A DNA stretch of 64,000 bases from Parcubacteria group bacterium (GTDB lineage Bacteria; Patescibacteriota; Minisyncoccia; Phycocordibacterales; 21-14-all-47-15): positions 15,827 through 79,826 of the forward strand of contig JACOYO010000004.1 in NCBI GenBank assembly GCA_016181845.1, given 5' to 3'. Of this stretch, positions 9,243 through 20,278 are shown piece by piece. Positions within the stretch are counted from its first letter, which is position 1. Every line of letters starts with the position of its first letter. The position numbers were made by a program, and so were the translations under genes. Under the pieces are notes generated by a model. The model was not told where the DNA came from, did not search any database, and saw only the letters and a program-made list of their open reading frames with translations.

Positions 9243-9316
9243 TGGTGGACCTACGGGGAGTTGAACCCCGGACTCGGCAATGCGAATGCCGCGTAATACC
9301 ACTTTACTATAGGCCC
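9243..9316 (-). tRNA. tRNA-Ala (anticodon CGC), CCA encoded
   Basis: Read as the reverse complement: GGGCCUAUAGUAAAGUGGUAUUACGCGGCAUUCGCAUUGCCGAGUCCGGGGUUCAACUCCCCGUAGGUCCACCA. It has the G3:U70 Ala identity pair and the GGUUCAACUCC T-loop. Confidence 0.85.
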
Positions 9317-9415
9317 TTTGTTTTAAAAATTTTTAAATTTTTTCTCCTCCAATCTCTACAAATTTCTTTTTAAAATTTCCGCAAATACCAATGAAACATC
9401 AGGTCAAGTTTCGTG

Positions 9416-9486
9416 TCGGGGCGCCGGGAATCGAACCCGGTCTCTACGCACCCGAAGCGTATGTACTACCGGTATACTACGCCCCG
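9416..9486 (-). tRNA. tRNA-Pro (anticodon CGG), no encoded CCA
   Basis: A C1:G72 acceptor stem CGGGGCG/CGCCCCG, the anticodon loop UUCGGGU and the GGUUCGAUUCC T-loop. A further 10 bp of leader/trailer complementarity extends the acceptor helix. Confidence 0.75.
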
Positions 9487-9512
9487 ACACGAAACTCGAC
9501 CCTGAAACCCTA

Positions 9513-9584
9513 TGGGCGCTGCAAGGATTGAACTTGCGGCCTTTCGCGTGTGAAGCGAACGTTCTACCACTGAACTAAGCGCCC
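9513..9584 (-). tRNA. tRNA-Val (anticodon CAC), no encoded CCA
   Basis: Acceptor GGGCGCU/AGCGCCC, anticodon loop UUCACAC, T-loop AGUUCAAUCCU. Confidence 0.8.
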
Positions 9585-9606
9585 CGCGCATCTATCCAAG
9601 AGCGGG

Positions 9607-9677
9607 TGGACCTATGGGGAGTCGAACCCCAGCTTCAGCCATGCCATGGCCGCGTAATACCGCTTTACTATAGGCCC
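9607..9677 (-). tRNA. tRNA-Ala (anticodon GGC), 3' end CCC rather than CCA
   Basis: Acceptor GGGCCUA/UAGGUCC with G3:U70; anticodon loop AUGGCAU. Confidence 0.8.
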
Positions 9678-9754
9678 GATAAAAACAGCATGTACCATAA
9701 AACATATCATGAAAAAAACTCCTATACAACGCAGTGTGTCCATAAATACTGCAA

Positions 9755-9782
9755 TTGATTTATTCAAAAAATTTGATATGAT
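9755..9782 (+). promoter_or_regulatory. Sigma70-like promoter for tRNA-Ala(UGC)
   Basis: TTGATT -35, a 16-nt spacer and TATGAT -10, ending 13 nt before the tRNA 5' end. Confidence 0.35.
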
Positions 9783-9795
9783 GAATCACATTATC

Positions 9796-9868
9796 GGGCC
9801 CGTAGCTTAGTTGGTAGAGCGCCGCATTTGCAATGCGGAGGTCAGGAGTTCGAATCTCCTCGGGTCCA
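9796..9868 (+). tRNA. tRNA-Ala (anticodon UGC), no encoded CCA
   Basis: GGGCCCGUAGCUUAGUUGGUAGAGC...UUUGCAA...GGUUCGAAUCUCCUCGGGUCCA; G3:U70. Confidence 0.85.
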
Positions 9869-10006
9869 CAATTCTGAATTTTTTGAGCCGGACGGAAGCA
9901 TTTCGTACCGCTGAACTCGGAATACCTTGTCAAAACGAGTCTTTTTCAAAGAGTTGATATCCACATTGCATATATCAACTAAATAGCATATAATGTTGAT
10001 ATCCAT

Positions 10007-11197
10007 ATGAGCAATGTCAACCAACCAAAAATAGGTCGCTACATAACCCAGAAAGACGGCTATAAATCCTTTACCCATTTTGATTTTCCTCCAAAGGCCG
10101 GTTTTATTATACCTCCAAAACTTCATAAAAAACATGAGGAGGCTATCAGACTGGTCGGTAAACTCGATGGTATAACTCGACTCTTACCGGATAAGGACTT
10201 TTTCCTACTCATGTTTATCAAAAAGGATGCCGCATATTCGAGCCAAATAGAGGGCATAAAAGCGACATTGCAAGATGCCGTTGCGGCACAAGTTACTGAA
10301 GAAAAATCTCGCCTCCATCCCGACGTGGACGATATCGTTCATTATGTTGAAGCCGTAAATTACGGTATTAAACGAGCCGAAACACTCCCGATTTCTCTAC
10401 GACTTATACGCGAGATTCACGAAAAGCTGATGGTTGGAGCGCGTAGAACACAGCATGCGTATCCGGGAGAATTTCGACGCTCACAAAATTGGATCGGTGG
10501 GAAAACGCCGCACGATGCTTCTTTTGTGCCACCTGCTCCAGATGACATGAACAAGTCACTTGATGATCTTGAGAAATTTATTCATGCCAAAGATGACTAC
10601 CCATCTCTTATAAAAGCCGGACTTTTGCATGCGCAATTCGAGACAATCCATCCCTTCATTGACGGCAATGGTCGTACCGGACGCATGCTTATTGCCATGT
10701 ACATGCATCATGCCGGACTTTTAGAGTTGCCGGTACTCTATCTCTCAAACTACTTCAAGAAATACCAGAAGCTTTACTATCAGAAATTGCAAGGTTATCA
10801 CGATGAAGATTCGGATATAGATGCTTGGCTTGAATTCTTTCTTGAGGGTGTGGCTGAAATCGCTCTCGCATCTATTGAAACATGCACCAAGATTACCGCG
10901 CTTCGTGATCGTGACTTTGCCAAGATGCAGAAGCTTGGCAAGAAGTCGGCTCTGTCCACACTTCCGATCGTCTGCAAGCTTTTCGGTCAACCGATTGTCG
11001 GTGTTGCGGAAATAATGAAATGGACCGGCTTCAGCCCGCAAGGTTCCTATAATGTGATCAATCGACTCAAGGGTTTAAAAATTCTGGAGCCTCTTGGTGA
11101 TGCTGATTATGGGCAGAAGTATATCTATGCCGATTACTATGAAATCTTTGACGACGCATTTCGCGATGCTCGTGCAAAAGAAAGATCCACTCGTTAG
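10007..11197 (+). CDS. Fic/DOC family protein (AMPylator-like) with a C-terminal winged-helix region
   Basis: Canonical Fic motif HPFIDGNGRTGR. The gene is preceded by direct repeats GTTGATATCCA(C/T) at 9953-9964 and 9992-10003. Confidence 0.85.
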   Translation: MSNVNQPKIGRYITQKDGYKSFTHFDFPPKAGFIIPPKLHKKHEEAIRLVGKLDGITRLLPDKDFFLLMFIKKDAAYSSQIEGIKATLQDAVAAQVTEEKSRLHPDVDDIVHYVEAVNYGIKRAETLPISLRLIREIHEKLMVGARRTQHAYPGEFRRSQNWIGGKTPHDASFVPPAPDDMNKSLDDLEKFIHAKDDYPSLIKAGLLHAQFETIHPFIDGNGRTGRMLIAMYMHHAGLLELPVLYLSNYFKKYQKLYYQKLQGYHDEDSDIDAWLEFFLEGVAEIALASIETCTKITALRDRDFAKMQKLGKKSALSTLPIVCKLFGQPIVGVAEIMKWTGFSPQGSYNVINRLKGLKILEPLGDADYGQKYIYADYYEIFDDAFRDARAKERSTR

Positions 11198-11316: not shown

Positions 11317-13026
11317 ATGAAGAAAACATCAAGCGAAAAGGCGTTGCTTTCAATCAGTGAAGTTTCAAGTATTTTTGGTATTCATCAAGACACGCTTCGT
11401 AATTGGGAGAAAAAAGGACTCATCACTCCGCTTCGCGTAGGACCTCGTAAAGACCGTAAGTACAAACCAGAAGATATTGAGCGAATTGCAAACGATAAAA
11501 GTATCGTAAAAACTTTTGATGCTCCACTCACCGATGATTCAGGAAAAATGAACCTCACCCAGCTCAAACAATTTCTTTGGAAAAGTGCCGACATCTTGCG
11601 TGGAAAAATTGATAGCTCTGACTACAAGAAATATATTTTTGGACTCCTTTTTTACAAACGCATCAGCGACTCATGGGATGAAGAATATAAAAAAATTCTT
11701 GATGAATATCACGATGAAGAAATTGCTCGCGCAGATCATAATCACCGTTTTCAAGTTCCGAAGGACTGTCGATGGGAAGTAATTCAGAAACAAGCGGAAG
11801 GAATTGGTCACAAACTCAATGAGATTTTTGACAAGCTCACGAATGCAAACAGTCCGAAGCTGGACAAAATTTTTGACGACCTTGATTTTGCAAATAAAGA
11901 CAAATTTCCAAACGAAACACTTCAGCGTCTCATCAATCATTTCTCACGGCACAATTTTGGAGATAACTACATTAGCTCCGACCTTCTCGGCGATGCATAC
12001 GAATACCTTATTGAGCAATTTGCGGCGGACGCGGGGAAAAAAGGTGGGGAATTCTACACCCCTCGCGAGGTTGAGCGCATCATTATAAATATTCTCAAAC
12101 CACACGAGAAAGACCACATCTACGATATGGCGGTGGGTTCGGGCGGTTTCCTCTTGGAGGCATATCATCATCTCAAAAACGAAGCGGGAGAAAAGAAAGC
12201 TCGTTCGCTCTATCTATACGGGCAAGAAATAAATATCGGTACATACGCGATTGCAAAAATCAATATGTTCCTCCACGGACTTGATAGCGCCGATATTCAA
12301 CGCGGAGATACACTCGCCGATCCAAAGTTCCTAAATCCAGACGGCTCGCTCAAAACATTTGATATCTGCGTTGCAAATCCTCCATATTCAATCAGCGAGT
12401 GGGAGTACGAGATATTTAAATCTGACAAATACGGACGAGTTGCCGGTTACGAAATGCCTCCGGCAAAAAAAGCCGACTACGCTTTTGTGCTTCACATGGT
12501 GAAGTCAATGAATGAAAACGGACGGGCTGGAATTGTGCTCCCGCACGGCGTACTTTTCCGTGGCGGCGCAGAAGGCCGCATTCGTGAGAATCTGATCAAG
12601 AACGATCTTATAGAAGCAATTATTGCTCTCCCTGCAAAGCTTTTCTACGGCACGGGTATTCCAGCGGCAATTGTGATATTCAACAAAAACAAGCCTGAAG
12701 CTCATAAGAACAAAATCCTCATCATTGATGCCGAACAGGATTACGAGGAAGGCAAAAATCAAAACCGTTTGCGCAAGAAAGATATTGAGAAAATTGTGAC
12801 AGCGTTTGATGGTTATCGGGATATTGAGAAATACGCTCGCGTAGTTGATGCGAAGGAGCTGGAAGAAAACGAATTCAATCTCAATGTGCGTCGTTACGTA
12901 GAAAATGGCGAGGATGAGGAAGTGGTGGATGTAAAAACCGTATGGAGCGAAGTAAAAGAAATTGAAAAAGCTCGCGAAGCTATTGATAAAAAGGTTGCAA
13001 ATTATTTATCAGAATTAAAATATTAA
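11317..13026 (+). CDS. hsdM: Type I restriction-modification N6-adenine DNA methyltransferase subunit M with an extra N-terminal MerR/excisionase-like HTH
   Basis: HsdM N-domain (LWKSADILRG...LLFYKRISD), the AdoMet motif (DMAVGSGGFLLEA) and the NPPY catalytic motif (VANPPYS). The first ~70 aa resemble an HTH_17/MerR helix-turn-helix (LLSISEVSSIFGIHQDTLRNWEKKGLI). Confidence 0.9.
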   Translation: MKKTSSEKALLSISEVSSIFGIHQDTLRNWEKKGLITPLRVGPRKDRKYKPEDIERIANDKSIVKTFDAPLTDDSGKMNLTQLKQFLWKSADILRGKIDSSDYKKYIFGLLFYKRISDSWDEEYKKILDEYHDEEIARADHNHRFQVPKDCRWEVIQKQAEGIGHKLNEIFDKLTNANSPKLDKIFDDLDFANKDKFPNETLQRLINHFSRHNFGDNYISSDLLGDAYEYLIEQFAADAGKKGGEFYTPREVERIIINILKPHEKDHIYDMAVGSGGFLLEAYHHLKNEAGEKKARSLYLYGQEINIGTYAIAKINMFLHGLDSADIQRGDTLADPKFLNPDGSLKTFDICVANPPYSISEWEYEIFKSDKYGRVAGYEMPPAKKADYAFVLHMVKSMNENGRAGIVLPHGVLFRGGAEGRIRENLIKNDLIEAIIALPAKLFYGTGIPAAIVIFNKNKPEAHKNKILIIDAEQDYEEGKNQNRLRKKDIEKIVTAFDGYRDIEKYARVVDAKELEENEFNLNVRRYVENGEDEEVVDVKTVWSEVKEIEKAREAIDKKVANYLSELKY

Positions 13027-13030
13027 ATTT

Positions 13031-13384
13031 ATGGAACTAAAAGATTTTGTTAAAAATGTACTTAAGGATGTCACAGAAGCAGTTGATGAATATCGATCTG
13101 AATCAAGTCGTGATATGCACTTGGACAACATGAAAGATCAGCGCACAGTTGAGTTTGATGTTGCTGTGGCTGCAGAAGATGTAACTTCTGCTACCGGTAA
13201 GGCAGGAATTAAAGTTTTCTCTCTGATTGAGGGTGGTGGTGAAGCATCAAAAGAAGTCAAAAACTCAACCGTCAGCCGGATTAAATTTGGTGTTCATGTT
13301 AATCGCTTTACGAAACAAGAGAATGCAGGTTTTGAAGCACAAAATCGAGCATTGAATTCAAGAAATCATAATGAATACATCTAA
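13031..13384 (+). CDS. Hypothetical small beta-rich protein embedded in the Type I RM operon (possible Trypco2-like effector-associated domain; this assignment is from memory and unverified)
   Basis: 117 aa. Starts 5 nt after the hsdM stop and overlaps the next ORF by 14 nt. Alternating hydrophobic pattern VEFDVAVAAEDV...GKAGIKVFSL...SRIKFGVHV. Confidence 0.5.
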   Translation: MELKDFVKNVLKDVTEAVDEYRSESSRDMHLDNMKDQRTVEFDVAVAAEDVTSATGKAGIKVFSLIEGGGEASKEVKNSTVSRIKFGVHVNRFTKQENAGFEAQNRALNSRNHNEYI

Positions 13385-13988
13385 TATACAAAAAAAATCT
13401 GATGATGTAGTAATGGCAAATAAACATCAGGTGCACCTGCTTGATAATATTGATAAAGCTCAAAAATCCTTGAGCCTTTTTGAGTTATTGAGAAATAAAA
13501 AATTCACAACCGGCACAGTTAAGCAAGATAATTGGCTGGAGGAAATTTTACTTTCTTTTATTATTCTTAAAATACATACGGTTTTTGACAAAACCAGAGA
13601 TACTGTTTGTTTTGAGAATTTTCTTAAAAATAACGCTCAACATATCACAAAGAAAAAATATATAGAAGATATATCTAGTAAATTTGAAGCGTTAAAAACA
13701 AAACATAAAACACTTATTGAACAGATTAAAAATAATCGCCATGAATCAGTGGCGCATATTCCTAAAAAAACAAAACTTGGCGTAACCGAGAAAGTAGCAG
13801 TTAAAATAAGAGAATTTGGACATCAGATCGGCAGTGAAGATTATAAAAATCAAAAGTCAGTATCTGATGACAAAATGAGGTTTTCTGTTGGCAATTTTCC
13901 GATAGATAATGTAAAAGATTTAACAACAAAATTATTAAAACTTATTTTTGGAGTAAAATATCCTAAAACCATTGGTAAATTGATATGA
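13371..13988 (+). CDS. Hypothetical protein with an Rx5H HEPN-like motif (candidate RNase/abortive-infection effector) embedded in the Type I RM operon
   Basis: 205 aa, predicted helical, with the motif NNRHESVAHI (R-x5-H). Its stop overlaps the hsdS start as ATGA. Confidence 0.5.
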   Translation: MNTSNIQKKSDDVVMANKHQVHLLDNIDKAQKSLSLFELLRNKKFTTGTVKQDNWLEEILLSFIILKIHTVFDKTRDTVCFENFLKNNAQHITKKKYIEDISSKFEALKTKHKTLIEQIKNNRHESVAHIPKKTKLGVTEKVAVKIREFGHQIGSEDYKNQKSVSDDKMRFSVGNFPIDNVKDLTTKLLKLIFGVKYPKTIGKLI

Positions 13989-15178
13989 AAACTGACACAC
14001 AACAACAGAATATTCCGAACGGATGGCAACTCAAAAAACTGAGCGATGTTTTAGACTACGAGCGTCCAGATAAATATATTGTTAAAAGTAAAAGTTACAG
14101 CAATAAAGAAAAGACTCCAGTGCTCACAGCCAACAAGTCCTTTGTTTTAGGTTATACAGACGAAGATTTTGGTATTTATAGAAACTTGCCAGCAATTATT
14201 TTTGATGACTTTACAACTGACAGTAAACTTGTGAATTTCCCTTTTAAAATTAAGTCTTCGGCAATCAAAATTTTAAAAGAAAAAAATAAAGACATAGATT
14301 TGCGGTTTGTTTTTGAAAAAATGAAGTCAGTAACTTTTCCTACGGGAAGCCATAAACGCTTCTATATTTCACAGTACCAAAATTTAGAAATAGCCGTGCC
14401 TCCAATCAAAGAACAGCAAAAGATTGCGGAGATTTTGGGGGCGGTGGATGAGGATATTACTAAAACGCAGGAAGTGATTGAGGCGACAGAAAAGCTCAAG
14501 CGCGGATTGATGCAACAGCTTTTTACTCACGGGATTAGTCATACGAAATTCAAGGAAACAAAAATCGGACAAATTCCGGAATCATGGAGTATGGTGTCGG
14601 TTTCTGAAGTAGTAAAGAAAATCGTCGATAATCGCGGAAAAACTCCTCCACTTGCTTCGGATGGTATAGGGATAATTGAGGTTAATGCTATCGATAGCTC
14701 ACAAAAATATCCGAATTATTTGAAAATATCAAAATATGTAAGCCAAGAAACATACAATTCTTGGTTTAGAAGTGGTCATCCGGAAAAAGGAGATATTTTA
14801 ATACCAACAGTCGGGACAGTCGGCGTAGCTGTGATAATGAATGAAAACAAGGGATGTATTGCGCAGAATATTATTGCTGTTCGTGTAAAAGATACTATTT
14901 TACCGGATTTCTTTTATTATCTCGTCATAAGTCCTTTGTTCGTAGATCAAATTAGAAAAGTTTTAATGGGAGCTGTTCAGCCAAGTTTGAAAGTACCGCA
15001 TATGTTGGCGTTTAACATTCCATTACCGGCAAAGCCAGAACAACAAAAAATTACAGAAATTTTTTCCGCAGTCGATGAAAAAATCTCAGTCAATAAGAAA
15101 TTAAAAGAAAAACTTACTCTCCTCAAAAAAGGTCTGATGCAGGATTTGTTGAGTGGGAAAGTTAGGATAAATATATGA
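13985..15178 (+). CDS. hsdS: Type I restriction-modification specificity subunit S (two target-recognition domains)
   Basis: Duplicated TRD architecture with the conserved central and C-terminal helical repeats (KIAEILGAVDEDI... / KITEIFSAVDEKI...), typical of HsdS. Confidence 0.85.
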   Translation: MKTDTQQQNIPNGWQLKKLSDVLDYERPDKYIVKSKSYSNKEKTPVLTANKSFVLGYTDEDFGIYRNLPAIIFDDFTTDSKLVNFPFKIKSSAIKILKEKNKDIDLRFVFEKMKSVTFPTGSHKRFYISQYQNLEIAVPPIKEQQKIAEILGAVDEDITKTQEVIEATEKLKRGLMQQLFTHGISHTKFKETKIGQIPESWSMVSVSEVVKKIVDNRGKTPPLASDGIGIIEVNAIDSSQKYPNYLKISKYVSQETYNSWFRSGHPEKGDILIPTVGTVGVAVIMNENKGCIAQNIIAVRVKDTILPDFFYYLVISPLFVDQIRKVLMGAVQPSLKVPHMLAFNIPLPAKPEQQKITEIFSAVDEKISVNKKLKEKLTLLKKGLMQDLLSGKVRINI

Positions 15179-15792
15179 TTTTAATACAAGAAGTTTATTG
15201 TGGAATATGGGAACTTTTATCTAAGGTATCGCTTTATACAGTTATTCAATTAGGATTGCTTGTTGTTGCTGGCCTTGCTTTAAATACATGGAGAAAGCAG
15301 TTGCATGGCGGAAATGAGTATCAGACAGCATTTGATCTTTTGTTAAGGGTAAGACAGTTGGAGAAAAAGATCCAGAAGGAAATAAGAAACCCATTCTTAC
15401 GACCAGTCAATAATAAAAGTTTTGATGATTGGAATTGGGAAAGAGAAGTTTATATGTCTAGATTTAATGATTTTTATGATTTTAAAAATAAATTTTACGA
15501 TGAGGCAGTTTTAAAATCAGAAATTTTATTTGGTAAAGATATCGAATTATTTTTTAAGAATATAGAAGATAGGATTGTTGAAATTCGCATGGCGTACGAG
15601 GTTGCTTATAAGATTTTTAGAGGAAGAGATAAATATGACGATGAGAGTATGTATAGACAATATGCTGAGAAAATAGAGAAAAACAAAGAGCTTTTATGGA
15701 ATCAGGATGGCGATAACTATTCTGTTCGATTACGAAGTGCTGTTAAGGCATTGGAAGAGGTTCTATACAAAAAAATGAACAAAAAAATATGA
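15175..15792 (+). CDS. Hypothetical protein with an N-terminal TM helix, translationally coupled to hsdS
   Basis: ATGA overlap with the hsdS stop. One hydrophobic segment (VIQLGLLVVAGLAL), then a helical Lys/Glu-rich domain. I know of no assignable family. Confidence 0.5.
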   Translation: MILIQEVYCGIWELLSKVSLYTVIQLGLLVVAGLALNTWRKQLHGGNEYQTAFDLLLRVRQLEKKIQKEIRNPFLRPVNNKSFDDWNWEREVYMSRFNDFYDFKNKFYDEAVLKSEILFGKDIELFFKNIEDRIVEIRMAYEVAYKIFRGRDKYDDESMYRQYAEKIEKNKELLWNQDGDNYSVRLRSAVKALEEVLYKKMNKKI

Positions 15793-15856
15793 AATTCAAT
15801 GAATAAGCTATAGTAGAAAATTGCATCGTTAAATTATCAAATAATGCTATAAAAAT

Positions 15857-16723
15857 ATGAAAAAAGAAATCATACAATCACTGACCAATAATTTTGAATC
15901 ATACTCAAACAAGACAGAAAATGGGGTGGAGTTCTGGCTTGCGCGAGATTTGCAGCAACTTTTGGGGTATGACAAGTGGGACAACTTTTTAGGGGCTATC
16001 TCAAAGGCTAAAATAGCCTGTGAAAACACAGGTCACAAGGTAACCGATCATTTTGCCGACGCCGGGAAAACGATCCAAATGCCCAAGGGCGCTCAGAAGG
16101 AGATTTTGGACATAATGCTTACAAGATACGCTTGTTATTTGATTGCTCAAAACGGCGATCCAAGGAAAGAACAGGTAGCTTTTGCGCAAAACTACTTCGC
16201 GGTACAAACACGAAAGTTTGAAGTTATCGAGAAGCGCATACAGGATTCCGAGAGACTGCTAGCTAGATATAAATTGACCGAAACTGAGAAGAAGTTATCC
16301 GGTGTTATATTTGAGCAAACAGGAAGTGATAGAAATTTCGCGCTTATTCGGAGCAAGGGAGATAAGGCCCTATTCGGATATACCACGCAAGAAATGAAAA
16401 ACCGTCTTGGCGTTCCGGGGAGCCGAGCATTGGCGGATTTTCAACCGACAATTTTGCTCAAGGCAAAAGATTTTGCGACAGAGATCACCATTTTCAACTC
16501 AAAAGAAAAAGGATTGCGATCAGAACAATCTATTTCCGAAGAACATATCACAAATAATCGAAGTGTGAGAAAGACACTTTTGAGTCGGGGAATTACGCCT
16601 GAAAGATTGCCGGTGGAGGAAGATATCAAAAAGATTGAACGGAAACTTAAGTCCGAAGAGACTAAAGGTTTGAAGAAACCAGTTAAATTAAGAGAGGTAA
16701 ATGAAAAGGGGCCATCGTCCTAA
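15857..16723 (+). CDS. dinD: DNA-damage-inducible protein D homologue (DinD family)
   Basis: Collinear similarity to E. coli DinD: EFWLARDLQQLLGYDKWDNF, LTRYACYLIAQNGDP, YFAVQTR. Confidence 0.75.
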   Translation: MKKEIIQSLTNNFESYSNKTENGVEFWLARDLQQLLGYDKWDNFLGAISKAKIACENTGHKVTDHFADAGKTIQMPKGAQKEILDIMLTRYACYLIAQNGDPRKEQVAFAQNYFAVQTRKFEVIEKRIQDSERLLARYKLTETEKKLSGVIFEQTGSDRNFALIRSKGDKALFGYTTQEMKNRLGVPGSRALADFQPTILLKAKDFATEITIFNSKEKGLRSEQSISEEHITNNRSVRKTLLSRGITPERLPVEEDIKKIERKLKSEETKGLKKPVKLREVNEKGPSS

Positions 16724-16741: not shown

Positions 16742-16808
16742 GATACTGTATTTATAGTGTATAGAATTCACCCCATAAAGTCAAGAGTTATCCACAAGTA
16801 GAAAATAT

Positions 16809-19724
16809 ATGAAATTTAACGAACAAGTCACAGTAGAAAATTACATCATCAAGTTTATTAAAGATAAGCTTGGATTTGAGTACATAAAGCCAGAGGAATT
16901 TGCGAAATATCGCGAACTTGAGACGGAATACATTATAACTCCTCTTTTGGAGCGCGCTATTAGTACGCTGAATCCTACTGCGAACGAGAGTGAGATTAAA
17001 AATGTAATTCGCGAAGTGAGGAAGATTGATAATAACGAGGCATTTTTGAAAGCATTGCGAGATGGAATTAACCTCAAGAATTCCGTCACAGGCAAAAAGC
17101 ACGATTACAAACTGCTTGATTTTGATACTCCCGAGAATAATCAATTTGTTGTCACCAATCAATTCTATTTTGAGGGAGATACCGAAAATATCCGTCCCGA
17201 TATTTTGATTTTTGTGAACGGGCTTCCGCTTGTAGATATTGAGGCAAAAAGTCCAACGGCTTCGGAGGGAGTGAGTTTTGAAAATGGCATTGACCAGCTC
17301 AAACGATACGAGAAAGTAGCTCGAAAGTTGTTTATCCCGAACTGTTTCAATATTGCCAGTGATGGACTCAAAACTGTATATGGGGCAACGGGCGCGCCAA
17401 AGCAATATTTCCTACAGTGGCGAGATGACGATGTTGAGAAAGAGCTTGGTGGCGAGCTTGAGATGATGCTTTTCTCACTTCTCTCAAAGCAGAACTTTTT
17501 GGATATTGTTCAGAACTTTATTTTGTTTGAAAAAGAAAAGGAGAAATTGGTGAAGAAAATTGCTCGCTATCAGCAGATGCGAGCAACAAATAAAATTGTG
17601 GAGCGTGTAGTAAGCAAAGAGAAGCGACAAGGGCTTATCTGGCACACCCAAGGGTCCGGCAAGACACTCACAATGTATTTCACTGCGTGGAAACTACGCT
17701 TCAATAAACAGCTCGCTAATCCCAAGGTATTTATTTTGGTTGATCGGGTAGATTTGGACGACCAGATATTTGAGACATTTACCAATGCAGGTGGAAAAAA
17801 CATCGTTCGTGTCACTTCTCGAAAAGATTTGGAGGAAAAAATTCAATCACCGGAGAAAGGCATCTTCATCACGACCATTCAAAAGTTTTCTGAACTTGGC
17901 GACAAGGTAGAAAATCTTGATGAAAATGTGATTGTGCTTTCTGATGAGGCGCACCGAGGCGACGAAGGTGTATCGGGTATTAATATGCGAAATGCATTCA
18001 AAAAGGCATTCTTCTTTGGGTTCACCGGAACGCCAGTTGATAAAACACACACGAACACTTTCCGAAATTACGAAGGAGACGGAAAGCGATATCTAGACTA
18101 TTACTCTATCCAGCAAGCTATTGATGACGGAGCGACAATCCCAGTGACCTACGAGGCGCGACTTTCAAAGTTTTCTATTGATGAAGAAAAACTAGACCAG
18201 CAGTTTGAAGAAATTGCTGGCGATTTGCCTGATAAACAAAAGACCGAACTCGTTAAGAAATATGGCAAGAAAGCGGCGCTAGTAAAGCTTCCAAAGCGTA
18301 TGGAAGCCGTTGCCAGGGACATTGTGGAGCATTACAAGCTCTATGTGGAGCCGAACGGCTTTAAGGGGCAGGTCGTTCTGTATGACCGCGAAGCGGTAGC
18401 AACCTACAAAAAACTCCTTGATAAGCTCGTGCCTGCCGAGTGGTCGGCTGTGGTGTATTCACCCGGAGACCCAAATAGCGATGCGGATGATTTGAAAGTC
18501 TATAACACGAGCAAGCGTGAGCGTGAGCAAATCATTGAGAAATTCAAAGATCCAAAGTCATCACTCAAGTTTTTGCTCGTGTGCGACATGTTGCTCACTG
18601 GTTTTGACGCACCGATTGAGCAGGTGATGTATCTTGATAAGCCACTTCGCGACCATAACCTCTTGCAAGCTATCGCGCGTACGAATCGTGTCTATAAAAA
18701 TAAGGAAGCAGGAAAAATTATTGATTACTACGGAATCACACGCAACCTTTATGACGCACTTGATTTTGACGAAGATGTAGTTGATTCTGCGATGATTGAT
18801 ATTGATCGTGTGAAGGCACGATTTTCCGATGTCTTGAATGATGCAATAAAGATATTTACAGGAGTGAATATTGAAGACCCATCGATGAATAATCTTCGCC
18901 GATGTCTGAAGATTTTTATTGATAATCAAGATAAGCAAAAATACTTTATTGAGAAGTATATGAAGCTCAAGAGCTTGTTTGAGTTTCTTTCTCCTGACCC
19001 ATTTTTGAAGCAATATATTCGTCAGTTTGAATGGGTGACAAGTTTCTATTTGGCATTTTTGAAAGAATTCCGAAGTGAGGATGATAGATACTTACTTGAA
19101 GAATACGGTGAGAAAGTCCGTGAGCTAATACAAAAGAGCAATATCATTGACTACGAAGGAATCACAAAGAATTTCCGCGAGCTTCGTGTGAATGATTTGT
19201 ATACACTTGAGCGACTCAAAGGAATGGATGAGGAAGAAAAGGCACTCAATCTTGAGAAGATGCTCAAACAAGAGATATCAATCAATCTTGATGAAAATCC
19301 CACCTATCAAAAGTTTAGCGAACGACTAACCGCCATTCGCCGTGAGTTTGAACAAAATCAAATTGACCTTGCGGAACGAATTCGTCGATATGAGGAATTA
19401 ATGAAGGATATAAGGACGAAGGGAGACGAGGCAAAAGAGATGGGGCTCGATCTCAAAGAATACGCGCTCTATGTGATATCGCAAGAGTTTATTGAGGGCG
19501 GAAATATCGAGGACATCAAGGAGTTTGTAAAGGAGTTGCGAACCCGTATTGAGGATGAGCTGGACTCTGGTTGGCAAGAATCTTCAAAGCGAGATGTGTT
19601 TGTGAAAGATATTAAGCAAACATTGCAGGAGCTTATTTTACGCGATTACAAATGTCGATTTACTGTAAAAGACTTCCCGAAATTCTTGAATCGACTGGTG
19701 GACATAATCACTAAAAAATTCTAG
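16809..19724 (+). CDS. hsdR: Type I restriction enzyme R subunit (SF2 helicase-nuclease)
   Basis: 971 aa with helicase motifs I QGSGKTLT and II DEAHR, later SF2 motifs, and an N-terminal PD-(D/E)xK-type nuclease region (DILIFVNG...DIEAK). Confidence 0.9.
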   Translation: MKFNEQVTVENYIIKFIKDKLGFEYIKPEEFAKYRELETEYIITPLLERAISTLNPTANESEIKNVIREVRKIDNNEAFLKALRDGINLKNSVTGKKHDYKLLDFDTPENNQFVVTNQFYFEGDTENIRPDILIFVNGLPLVDIEAKSPTASEGVSFENGIDQLKRYEKVARKLFIPNCFNIASDGLKTVYGATGAPKQYFLQWRDDDVEKELGGELEMMLFSLLSKQNFLDIVQNFILFEKEKEKLVKKIARYQQMRATNKIVERVVSKEKRQGLIWHTQGSGKTLTMYFTAWKLRFNKQLANPKVFILVDRVDLDDQIFETFTNAGGKNIVRVTSRKDLEEKIQSPEKGIFITTIQKFSELGDKVENLDENVIVLSDEAHRGDEGVSGINMRNAFKKAFFFGFTGTPVDKTHTNTFRNYEGDGKRYLDYYSIQQAIDDGATIPVTYEARLSKFSIDEEKLDQQFEEIAGDLPDKQKTELVKKYGKKAALVKLPKRMEAVARDIVEHYKLYVEPNGFKGQVVLYDREAVATYKKLLDKLVPAEWSAVVYSPGDPNSDADDLKVYNTSKREREQIIEKFKDPKSSLKFLLVCDMLLTGFDAPIEQVMYLDKPLRDHNLLQAIARTNRVYKNKEAGKIIDYYGITRNLYDALDFDEDVVDSAMIDIDRVKARFSDVLNDAIKIFTGVNIEDPSMNNLRRCLKIFIDNQDKQKYFIEKYMKLKSLFEFLSPDPFLKQYIRQFEWVTSFYLAFLKEFRSEDDRYLLEEYGEKVRELIQKSNIIDYEGITKNFRELRVNDLYTLERLKGMDEEEKALNLEKMLKQEISINLDENPTYQKFSERLTAIRREFEQNQIDLAERIRRYEELMKDIRTKGDEAKEMGLDLKEYALYVISQEFIEGGNIEDIKEFVKELRTRIEDELDSGWQESSKRDVFVKDIKQTLQELILRDYKCRFTVKDFPKFLNRLVDIITKKF

Positions 19725-19729
19725 AAAGT

Positions 19730-20278
19730 ATGGAAAAGAAAATCTCATACAAACTCAAAAGAAGTAAAAGAGCAAAAAGGATGCGACTTGCCGTGTATTG
19801 TGATGGCAGTGTCGTTATCACAAGTCCTTTTGGGGCAGAGCAGTCGTTGATTGAAAAATTTCTCACTGATAAGAAGCAGTGGGTATGGGATAAAATTCAA
19901 TTTTTCAAAAGCGTTGATAGTAAAGCAATCCGCACATTCTCACACAAGGACTATTTAGAAAATAAAGATAAGGCGCTTGCTCTCGTGCATGAACGGGTGA
20001 GATTTTATAATAAAATTTACGGATTTTCTTTCAATAAAATCTTTATTAAAAATCAAAAGACCCGTTGGGGTAGCTGTTCGTGCAAGCAAAATCTAAATTT
20101 GAATTACAAAATAGTGTTTTTGCCAGAGAAACATCAGGATTATATTATCGTGCACGAAATGTGTCATTTGAAGGAGTTTAATCATTCAAGAAAATTCTGG
20201 GCGCTTGTGGAGAAGGTTCTTCCTAATTATTTAGATATTAAGAAAGAGCTTCGCAATCATGAGTTGTTTTATAAATAA
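19730..20278 (+). CDS. YgjP/DUF45-type zinc metallopeptidase (WLM/SprT-like), commonly linked to Type I RM loci
   Basis: HEMCHLKEFNHSRKFW (an HExxH...H zincin-like motif); starts 5 nt after hsdR. Confidence 0.7.
   Translation: MEKKISYKLKRSKRAKRMRLAVYCDGSVVITSPFGAEQSLIEKFLTDKKQWVWDKIQFFKSVDSKAIRTFSHKDYLENKDKALALVHERVRFYNKIYGFSFNKIFIKNQKTRWGSCSCKQNLNLNYKIVFLPEKHQDYIIVHEMCHLKEFNHSRKFWALVEKVLPNYLDIKKELRNHELFYK

Follow-up and report, generated by a model that had tools for sequence, protein, structure and literature searches.

The anticodon nucleases PrrC and RloC are embedded in Type Ic restriction-modification (RM) loci. The defence of bacteria of the Candidate Phyla Radiation (CPR, or Patescibacteria) consists mainly of RM systems, and these organisms are thinly covered by defence catalogues. 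We analysed a stretch of 64,000 nt (hereafter the window) from an uncultured Parcubacteria group bacterium (assembly GCA_016181845.1, contig JACOYO010000004.1, positions 15,827 to 79,826, forward strand), where two small open reading frames (ORFs), ORF-A and ORF-B, lie between hsdM and hsdS of a Type I RM operon. Several described systems are relevant to this locus. The AbiU2 family of HEPN proteins has been reported in R-M operons (Anantharaman et al. 2013, PMC3710099). As a rule, a gene nested in a Type I RM locus is likely to serve defence, a trend termed 'guilt-by-embedding' (10.1101/2024.01.29.577857), and the defence provided by one embedded solo HEPN protein, HEC-08, requires its Rx4-6H histidine (Payne et al., 10.1101/2024.01.29.577857). 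The Trypco1/2 families have been renamed Pepco (Evans et al., bioRxiv 10.1101/2025.11.14.688446). The 117-aa SsPepco forms a beta-barrel of 9-10 subunits that resists sodium dodecyl sulfate, and its amphipathic N-terminal helix is needed for toxicity (10.1101/2025.11.14.688446). The barrel permeabilises membranes only after the trypsin-like protease of Avs4, encoded next to it, has cut past Ile97 and removed a 20-aa tail (10.1101/2025.11.14.688446). In the papers that we consulted, mentions of Trypco2 tie it to proteases, to STAND/VMAP systems or to diversity-generating retroelement loci, and our literature search found no publication joining Pepco with restriction-modification.

The original prediction described the two ORFs as a single inserted module, made of a small beta-rich protein and an HEPN-like protein with an Rx5H motif. 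The ORF map and the raw sequence agree with the layout that it gave. The genes hsdM, ORF-A, ORF-B, and hsdS are all on the + strand, the hsdM stop is separated from the ORF-A ATG by a 4-nt spacer (the ATG begins 5 nt past the stop), the last 14 nt of ORF-A also belong to ORF-B, and the ORF-B stop and the hsdS start share an ATGA. Its domain assignments are also upheld at the family level, as detailed below, while the idea of a matched pair is not supported. We cautiously favour, as only slightly the better bet, an explanation in which a Type I RM operon (MerR-hsdM, hsdS, hsdR, YgjP) has accumulated independent accessory defence cassettes, with a resident pore-type ORF-A and a later HEPN ORF-B as putative back-up effectors. 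The coordinates of the features are given in Table 1.

At the level of sequence profiles, ORF-A is a member of the Trypco2/Pepco family. Its match to Pfam Trypco2 (PF19631) covers profile positions 1-74 of 78 with E=1e-4 and 22.9 bits, just below the gathering cut-off of 24.2 bits, and 36 of the 48 aligned relatives match PF19631 and no other family (best E 3.4e-7). Several homologues have a precomputed PF19631 match, one of which NCBI calls a 'trypco2 family protein'. The sequence of SsPepco, taken from the supplement of the preprint, scores 65.6 bits on the same profile. The alignment by hhalign of the ORF-A family with the single SsPepco sequence has a sensible register, with an E-value of 0.19 that is not significant alone. 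The protein begins with a strongly amphipathic helix, continues with beta strands that include a Gly-rich loop, and ends in a tail that is polar and variable. The secondary structure in the AlphaFold2 (AF2) model consists of helices at residues 3-24 and 95-116 and strands at 27-32, 39-47, and 81-94. The hydrophobic moment of the N-terminal helix (0.576) is matched by about 1 in 1000 shuffles. In the monomer model, the predicted local distance difference test score (pLDDT) is below 50 over residues 49-79, and this weak central region presumably indicates that an oligomer is needed for folding.

The clade of ORF-A lacks the partner protease of described Pepco systems. We collected 80 loci with ORF-A relatives in species-dereplicated genomes and labelled their neighbours with hidden Markov models built from the proteins of the window itself. 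The closer set comprises 43 relatives (42-76% identity), mostly from Patescibacteria and Omnitrophota. Trypsin and Peptidase_C14 are absent from the Pfam families listed for the scanned neighbours at the 80 loci, a scan that covered the unlabelled adjacent genes in the close set and the genes of at least 150 aa within two positions in the distant one. Searches with phmmer and two protease queries gave nothing significant near ORF-A relatives, and the operon in the window has no trypsin- or caspase-like protease. Furthermore, the family alignment has no conserved Ile past the last strand, the position of the Pepco cleavage site; conservation ends after this strand with the motif [FWLM]93-T-K95-x-E97. 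Lacking both the partner protease and the conserved cleavage-site Ile, ORF-A cannot simply be assigned the Pepco activation route, and its clade would have to be activated by other means. The operon ends with a gene for a YgjP-like metallopeptidase, which we considered as a candidate dedicated protease of ORF-A; we found no specific support for it, YgjP being linked to Type I RM generally. It follows hsdR in the window and in three other loci (L009, L021, L051), not in the other embedded loci with sequence beyond hsdR.

ORF-B belongs, judging from profile comparisons, to a tiny and divergent clade of AbiU2 HEPN proteins, found mostly in uncultured groundwater-type bacteria. Its match to HEPN_AbiU2 (PF18734; E=1.7e-5, 24.8 bits) is just below the gathering cut-off of 26.8 bits, while three distant relatives pass it (P0155 with 33.7, P0157 with 27.9, and P0159 with 36.8 bits). 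The link to AbiU2 is therefore transitive, through relatives found by the profile search, and not direct. A word-indexed search of 5.8 billion proteins identified 30 homologues, and 1.84 billion cluster representatives, scanned in full with a HMMER profile, yielded only 18 relatives. An identical protein is on record from a metagenome-assembled genome of the Parcubacteria group. The motif NNRHESVAH, noticed in the original prediction, corresponds to residues 121-129. Its R123-x5-H129 is invariant in the 30 close homologues and in the 18 representatives at 17-53% identity. In the alignment that extends down to 17% identity, the sole invariant residues are R123, H129, and G137, with N122, F72, and D73 nearly so. 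In terms of sequence, the invariant R and H are the Rx4-6H signature of HEPN proteins.

The structural evidence on ORF-B is compatible with an HEPN fold and not decisive. The AF2 model is all-helical with a pLDDT of 86, its motif loop is poorly modelled, and designed helical bundles score as well. A Foldseek search of the PDB with the HEPN model gave no match at E<=0.001, and a profile search of the PDB sequences with the ORF-B family gave only chance matches to centrin. Hence, the HEPN assignment rests on the profile link and the invariant motif. As anticipated in the original prediction, the protein has no ABC ATPase of the kind present in PrrC/RloC: there is no NTPase match in its 205 residues. 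An MNT nucleotidyltransferase gene adjoins neither ORF-B nor the HEPN gene in 11 homologous contexts. We found no HEPN relatives in viral contigs and no relatives of either protein in plasmids. The PADLOC v2 models do not match ORF-A or ORF-B, and PADLOC, NCBIfam, and PHROGs gave nothing useful for these two or for ORF-C, a third small gene located after hsdS.

Both genes are under purifying selection, with dN/dS values against orthologues of 0.035-0.11 for ORF-A and 0.14-0.36 for ORF-B. ORF-A has more than 176 homologues. These ratios and the homologue counts exclude that the two are spurious ORFs.

The relatives of ORF-A and ORF-B are distributed independently of each other. Those of ORF-A are enriched in RM loci: for 13 of the 43 closer relatives, same-strand hsd genes lie no more than 5 kb away, and 11 of these have them on both flanks. 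Their slot in the operon varies, being after hsdM, DinD, RhuM or hsdS, or before hsdR, and in two loci (L009, L014) the order is directly hsdM-Trypco2-hsdS. About 70% of the relatives are outside RM loci, e.g. directly after dnaK. None of the 43 loci of closer relatives has an HEPN gene. Conversely, the HEPN relatives neighbour a Type IIG methyltransferase, an EcoRI-type methylase (two contexts), or AAA_15/21 and DUF2130 genes, or lie 5' of hsdM-hsdS, and Trypco2 is absent from all of these. Around 9 of the 11 HEPN contexts lack Trypco2, and most are beside other DNA methyltransferases. Both genes co-occur in a single further locus, L104, where the closest homologue of the HEPN protein is encoded (78% identity) and the order is DinD-Trypco2-168 aa-HEPN-hsdS. 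Both sets of relatives are enriched in RM and defence contexts, where each otherwise occurs without the other gene. This independent distribution does not support a two-gene module. ORF-A and ORF-B were acquired separately.

The history of the locus is recorded in its sequence. Relative to the sister locus L009, the window has 85% nucleotide identity over hsdM and ORF-A and 81.5% over hsdR and YgjP. The homology ends exactly at the stop codon of ORF-A; in L009, the next gene is hsdS itself, which overlaps the Trypco2 gene by the same 14 nt. The overlap between ORF-A and ORF-B was therefore inherited from a Trypco2-hsdS junction. ORF-B begins at the ancestral ATG of hsdS, and MNTS... opens both ORF-B and the hsdS of L009. 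Codons 1-14 of ORF-B are left over from the 5' end of hsdS, and its homologues begin at the position of M15 (13413). At L104, the 5' end of the HEPN gene retains the hsdS motif ACAAAAGAATATTCCGA, which encodes QKNIP. The reused ATG and the relic hsdS sequences indicate that the HEPN gene was inserted a few codons into hsdS, whose 5' end was duplicated so that translational coupling was kept after the insertion. Hence, only half of the original prediction of an inserted pair stands: ORF-B was inserted next to hsdS, while ORF-A is an older resident of this type of operon.

A second scar lies further downstream. We identified, by a repeat search and an alignment with the start of the L009 hsdR, a direct repeat of 54 nt with 80% identity (15782-15835 and 16802-16855). 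In the upstream copy, a defunct remnant of the 5' end of hsdR (MKFNE*), the ATG overlaps the stop of ORF-C as ATGA. The two copies flank DinD, which indicates that DinD entered hsdR within its first codons and that the target was duplicated. The two insertions, HEPN into hsdS and DinD into hsdR, thus have a common signature. The block with HEPN, hsdS, and ORF-C (window 13400-15800) has a GC content of 29-36%, vs 43.6% for the window; the individual values are 28.5% for ORF-B, 31% for ORF-C, and 37.9% for ORF-A. This is consistent with the entire stretch that separates ORF-A from DinD having been acquired recently. ORF-C has only 7 homologues in the 5.8 billion proteins, one of which (P0170, in L107) is directly after hsdS in an RM locus, and it may be a further embedded accessory gene.

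Table 1. Features of the RM operon and its 5' neighbour (positions in the window).
Feature	Position	Strand	Evidence and remarks
Fic/DOC protein, SoFic-like	10007..11197	+	Pfam Fic 1.3e-19 and Fic_N; PADLOC SoFic 1.2e-101; directly 5' of the RM operon
hsdM with N-terminal MerR-type helix-turn-helix	11317..13026	+	Pfam N6_Mtase 3e-109, HsdM_N, MerR_1; 94% aa identity with L009 hsdM
ORF-A, 117-aa Trypco2/Pepco-family protein	13031..13384	+	Pfam PF19631, 22.9 bits
ORF-B, 205-aa AbiU2-family HEPN protein (by profile and motif)	13371..13988	+	Predicted catalytic R123 and H129; core from M15 (13413)
Relic of the ancestral hsdS 5' end, now the ORF-B start	13371..13412	+	ATGAATACATCTAA, identical to the L009 hsdS start
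hsdS, two target-recognition domains	13985..15178	+	Pfam Methylase_S 5e-29, two stretches
ORF-C, 205-aa orphan with hydrophobic N-terminus	15175..15792	+	No family match; ATGA-coupled to hsdS
Relic copy of the hsdR 5' end (MKFNE*)	15782..15835	+	Direct repeat of 16802-16855
DinD/Bro-N protein (PADLOC PDC-S13)	15857..16723	+	NCBIfam DinD 2e-105; PADLOC PDC-S13 4.5e-113
hsdR	16809..19724	+	81.5% nt identity with L009 hsdR, whose product has HSDR_N, ResIII, T1RH-like_C
YgjP-like Zn-metallopeptidase, operon end	19730..20278	+	Pfam YgjP-like 3.3e-43

The remaining features of the operon concern its regulation and surroundings. The MerR-type helix-turn-helix of hsdM (MerR_1, residues 12-58; window 11317-11500) is a fusion kept in the sister loci L009 and L010, and it may serve the self-regulation of the operon. 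Scans for promoters and terminators were uninformative in this AT-rich DNA. Immediately upstream of the SoFic-like gene and the RM operon there are five tRNA genes (window 9243-9869), three of them tRNA-Ala with differing anticodons. The ensemble of tRNA cluster, Fic, and RM operon looks like a tRNA-adjacent defence island. Fic genes are also found 3' of the HEPN gene in L003-L005.

Some neighbours of the relatives recur. A Trypco2 relative lies 25-53 nt 3' of dnaK (HSP70), on the same strand, in genomes of three CPR lineages, Peribacteria, Paceibacteria, and Saccharimonadales (L020 5039-7360, L029 5050-7354, L041 5043-7351), an adjacency reminiscent of the fusions with DnaK-like domains reported in the EACC1 protease-effector module. 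DinD/Bro-N is directly 5' of Trypco2 in four distinct contexts (L012/L013 5150-6351, L016, L051, and L104 1-960); in L019 and L021 it is one gene away. The adjacency of DinD and Trypco2 is more recurrent than that of Trypco2 and HEPN, and may merely reflect a common RM niche. As for the HEPN gene, two unrelated contexts have beside it a protein of 242-254 aa with a weak match to Abi_alpha, located downstream of HEPN in one and upstream in the other (L001 8620-9348; L097 226-990; L098 559-1323), and this neighbour recurs beside HEPN more than Trypco2 does. Finally, in L006 (936-3478; also in L007, L008, and L100) an HTH (helix-turn-helix) gene, the gene of a Trypsin_2 protease whose N-terminus is hydrophobic, and two small uncharacterised ORFs of 49 and 189 aa precede the HEPN homologue, the whole set being upstream of hsdM-hsdS. 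This cluster may be a different sort of protease-effector module.

We propose the following scenario for the two genes. ORF-A, as a long-standing resident of this type of operon, would probably form, by homology to SsPepco, a beta-barrel of 9-10 subunits that has amphipathic helices at its base and damages membranes. ORF-B would be an AbiU2-family HEPN RNase using R123 and H129, and its gene arrived later, as a low-GC cassette that entered the first codons of hsdS and captured the start codon. Both genes are co-oriented with hsdM and hsdS, translationally coupled to them and presumably co-transcribed, and their products would most likely act as separate second-line effectors, of the abortive-infection type, when restriction fails, following the logic of PrrC. 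RM-coupled abortive infection is plausible by analogy. A narrower proposal, which we hold to be unlikely, is that the RM-embedded Trypco2 is a protease-independent Pepco pore, or is cut by an enzyme of another kind, e.g. the YgjP-like metallopeptidase of the operon, and that it fires according to the state of the Type I RM complex. If this were true, CPR bacteria, with few known defences, would gain a restriction-coupled pore-forming suicide system with an HEPN RNase stacked on it as a further layer.

The main competing interpretation makes ORF-A a structural or regulatory accessory without toxicity, e.g. an adaptor, of the methyltransferase/specificity complex and ORF-B an unrelated embedded RNase. 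We regard it as doubtful. It draws on the purifying selection on ORF-A, equal to that on hsdM (dN/dS 0.035 vs 0.03), on its tight coupling between hsdM and hsdS in L009, L014, and L027, on the lack of both a protease partner and a conserved cleavage-site Ile, and on the description of Trypco2 as an effector-associated domain (10.1101/2023.09.22.558884). However, the variable slot in RM operons and the large majority of relatives outside RM loci are a poor fit to an obligate RM subunit, and the sole experimentally tested member of the family is a pore-forming toxin.

The cassettes could also be selfish hitch-hikers or addiction genes that settle at the recombination-prone 5' ends of hsd genes and have no anti-phage function. 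The duplicated hsdS and hsdR ends that flank the HEPN and DinD insertions, the shuffling of cassettes among sister loci, and the low GC of the inserted block are all in line with this. Yet both ORF-A and ORF-B are under purifying selection, both families have relatives with a validated role in defence, and genes embedded in defence systems are often active in defence assays (10.1101/2024.01.29.577857), so that we find a purely selfish origin quite improbable. The dedicated module put forward in the original prediction, i.e. an HEPN toxin with a small beta-rich antitoxin, sensor or partner, or the reverse, fares worst. The two genes are adjacent with an overlap in the window, and both are present in the closest sister locus. 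But a 168-aa gene separates them there, L009 is the same operon without the HEPN gene, the overlap predates the HEPN insertion, the GC contents differ (37.9% vs 28.5%), and elsewhere their relatives hardly meet. Given the gene distribution, the module is strongly disfavoured and very unlikely.

Back-up effectors accumulated separately in the RM operon, the scenario that we favour, have several implications. A Trypco2/Pepco clade that lacks a protease and resides in the Type I RM operons of CPR bacteria seems not to have been described before, and a sizeable clade of this kind implies a second route of control for this effector. If the scenario is true, the PrrC-style logic of "restriction plus suicide" would be extended to a pore-former. 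This raises a testable question, namely how a pore effector is gated without a protease. The duplicated 5' ends of hsdS and hsdR beside HEPN and DinD illustrate a concrete route by which accessory genes become embedded in RM operons with coupling kept. ORF-B itself is a divergent instance of an already known theme, since HEPN proteins of RM operons, including AbiU2, were catalogued in 2013 and the defence function of an embedded solo HEPN has been shown.

Compared with the described systems, ORF-A most resembles SsPepco. Both match PF19631, have 117 aa, an amphipathic N-terminal helix, and alternating beta strands, share a Gly-rich loop (IEGGGE vs VEAGGGGG), and end in a polar tail of 20-30 aa. 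In contrast to SsPepco, ORF-A has no adjacent serine or cysteine protease, and its tail has no Pro and no conserved cleavage-site Ile, the latter being replaced by a conserved [FWLM]-T-K-x-E. The settings also differ, with the clade of ORF-A in Type I RM operons of CPR bacteria and Omnitrophota, whereas Pepco is linked to the Avs/STAND and VMAP sensors of actinobacteria and cyanobacteria. ORF-B shares with AbiU2 (PF18734) the Rx4-6H motif, a solo helical protein of around 190 aa, and the association with R-M operons, but its clade is very small and divergent and has no Sel1-repeat partner. It differs from the HEPN-MNT type II/VII toxin-antitoxin systems in that no MNT gene lies beside it or beside the homologues examined. 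The nesting of single genes in a multi-gene defence system is in line with guilt-by-embedding, and the DinD of the window is PDC-S13, while HEC-08 itself belongs to the DUF3644 HEPN family and has Zn-ribbon domains, unlike ORF-B. Finally, as in PrrC/RloC, an HEPN gene, here of a predicted nuclease, lies within an hsdMSR operon, and the logic of second-line defence is plausibly common to them, although ORF-B lacks the N-terminal ABC/Rad50-like NTPase, is roughly half the size, and belongs to another HEPN family.
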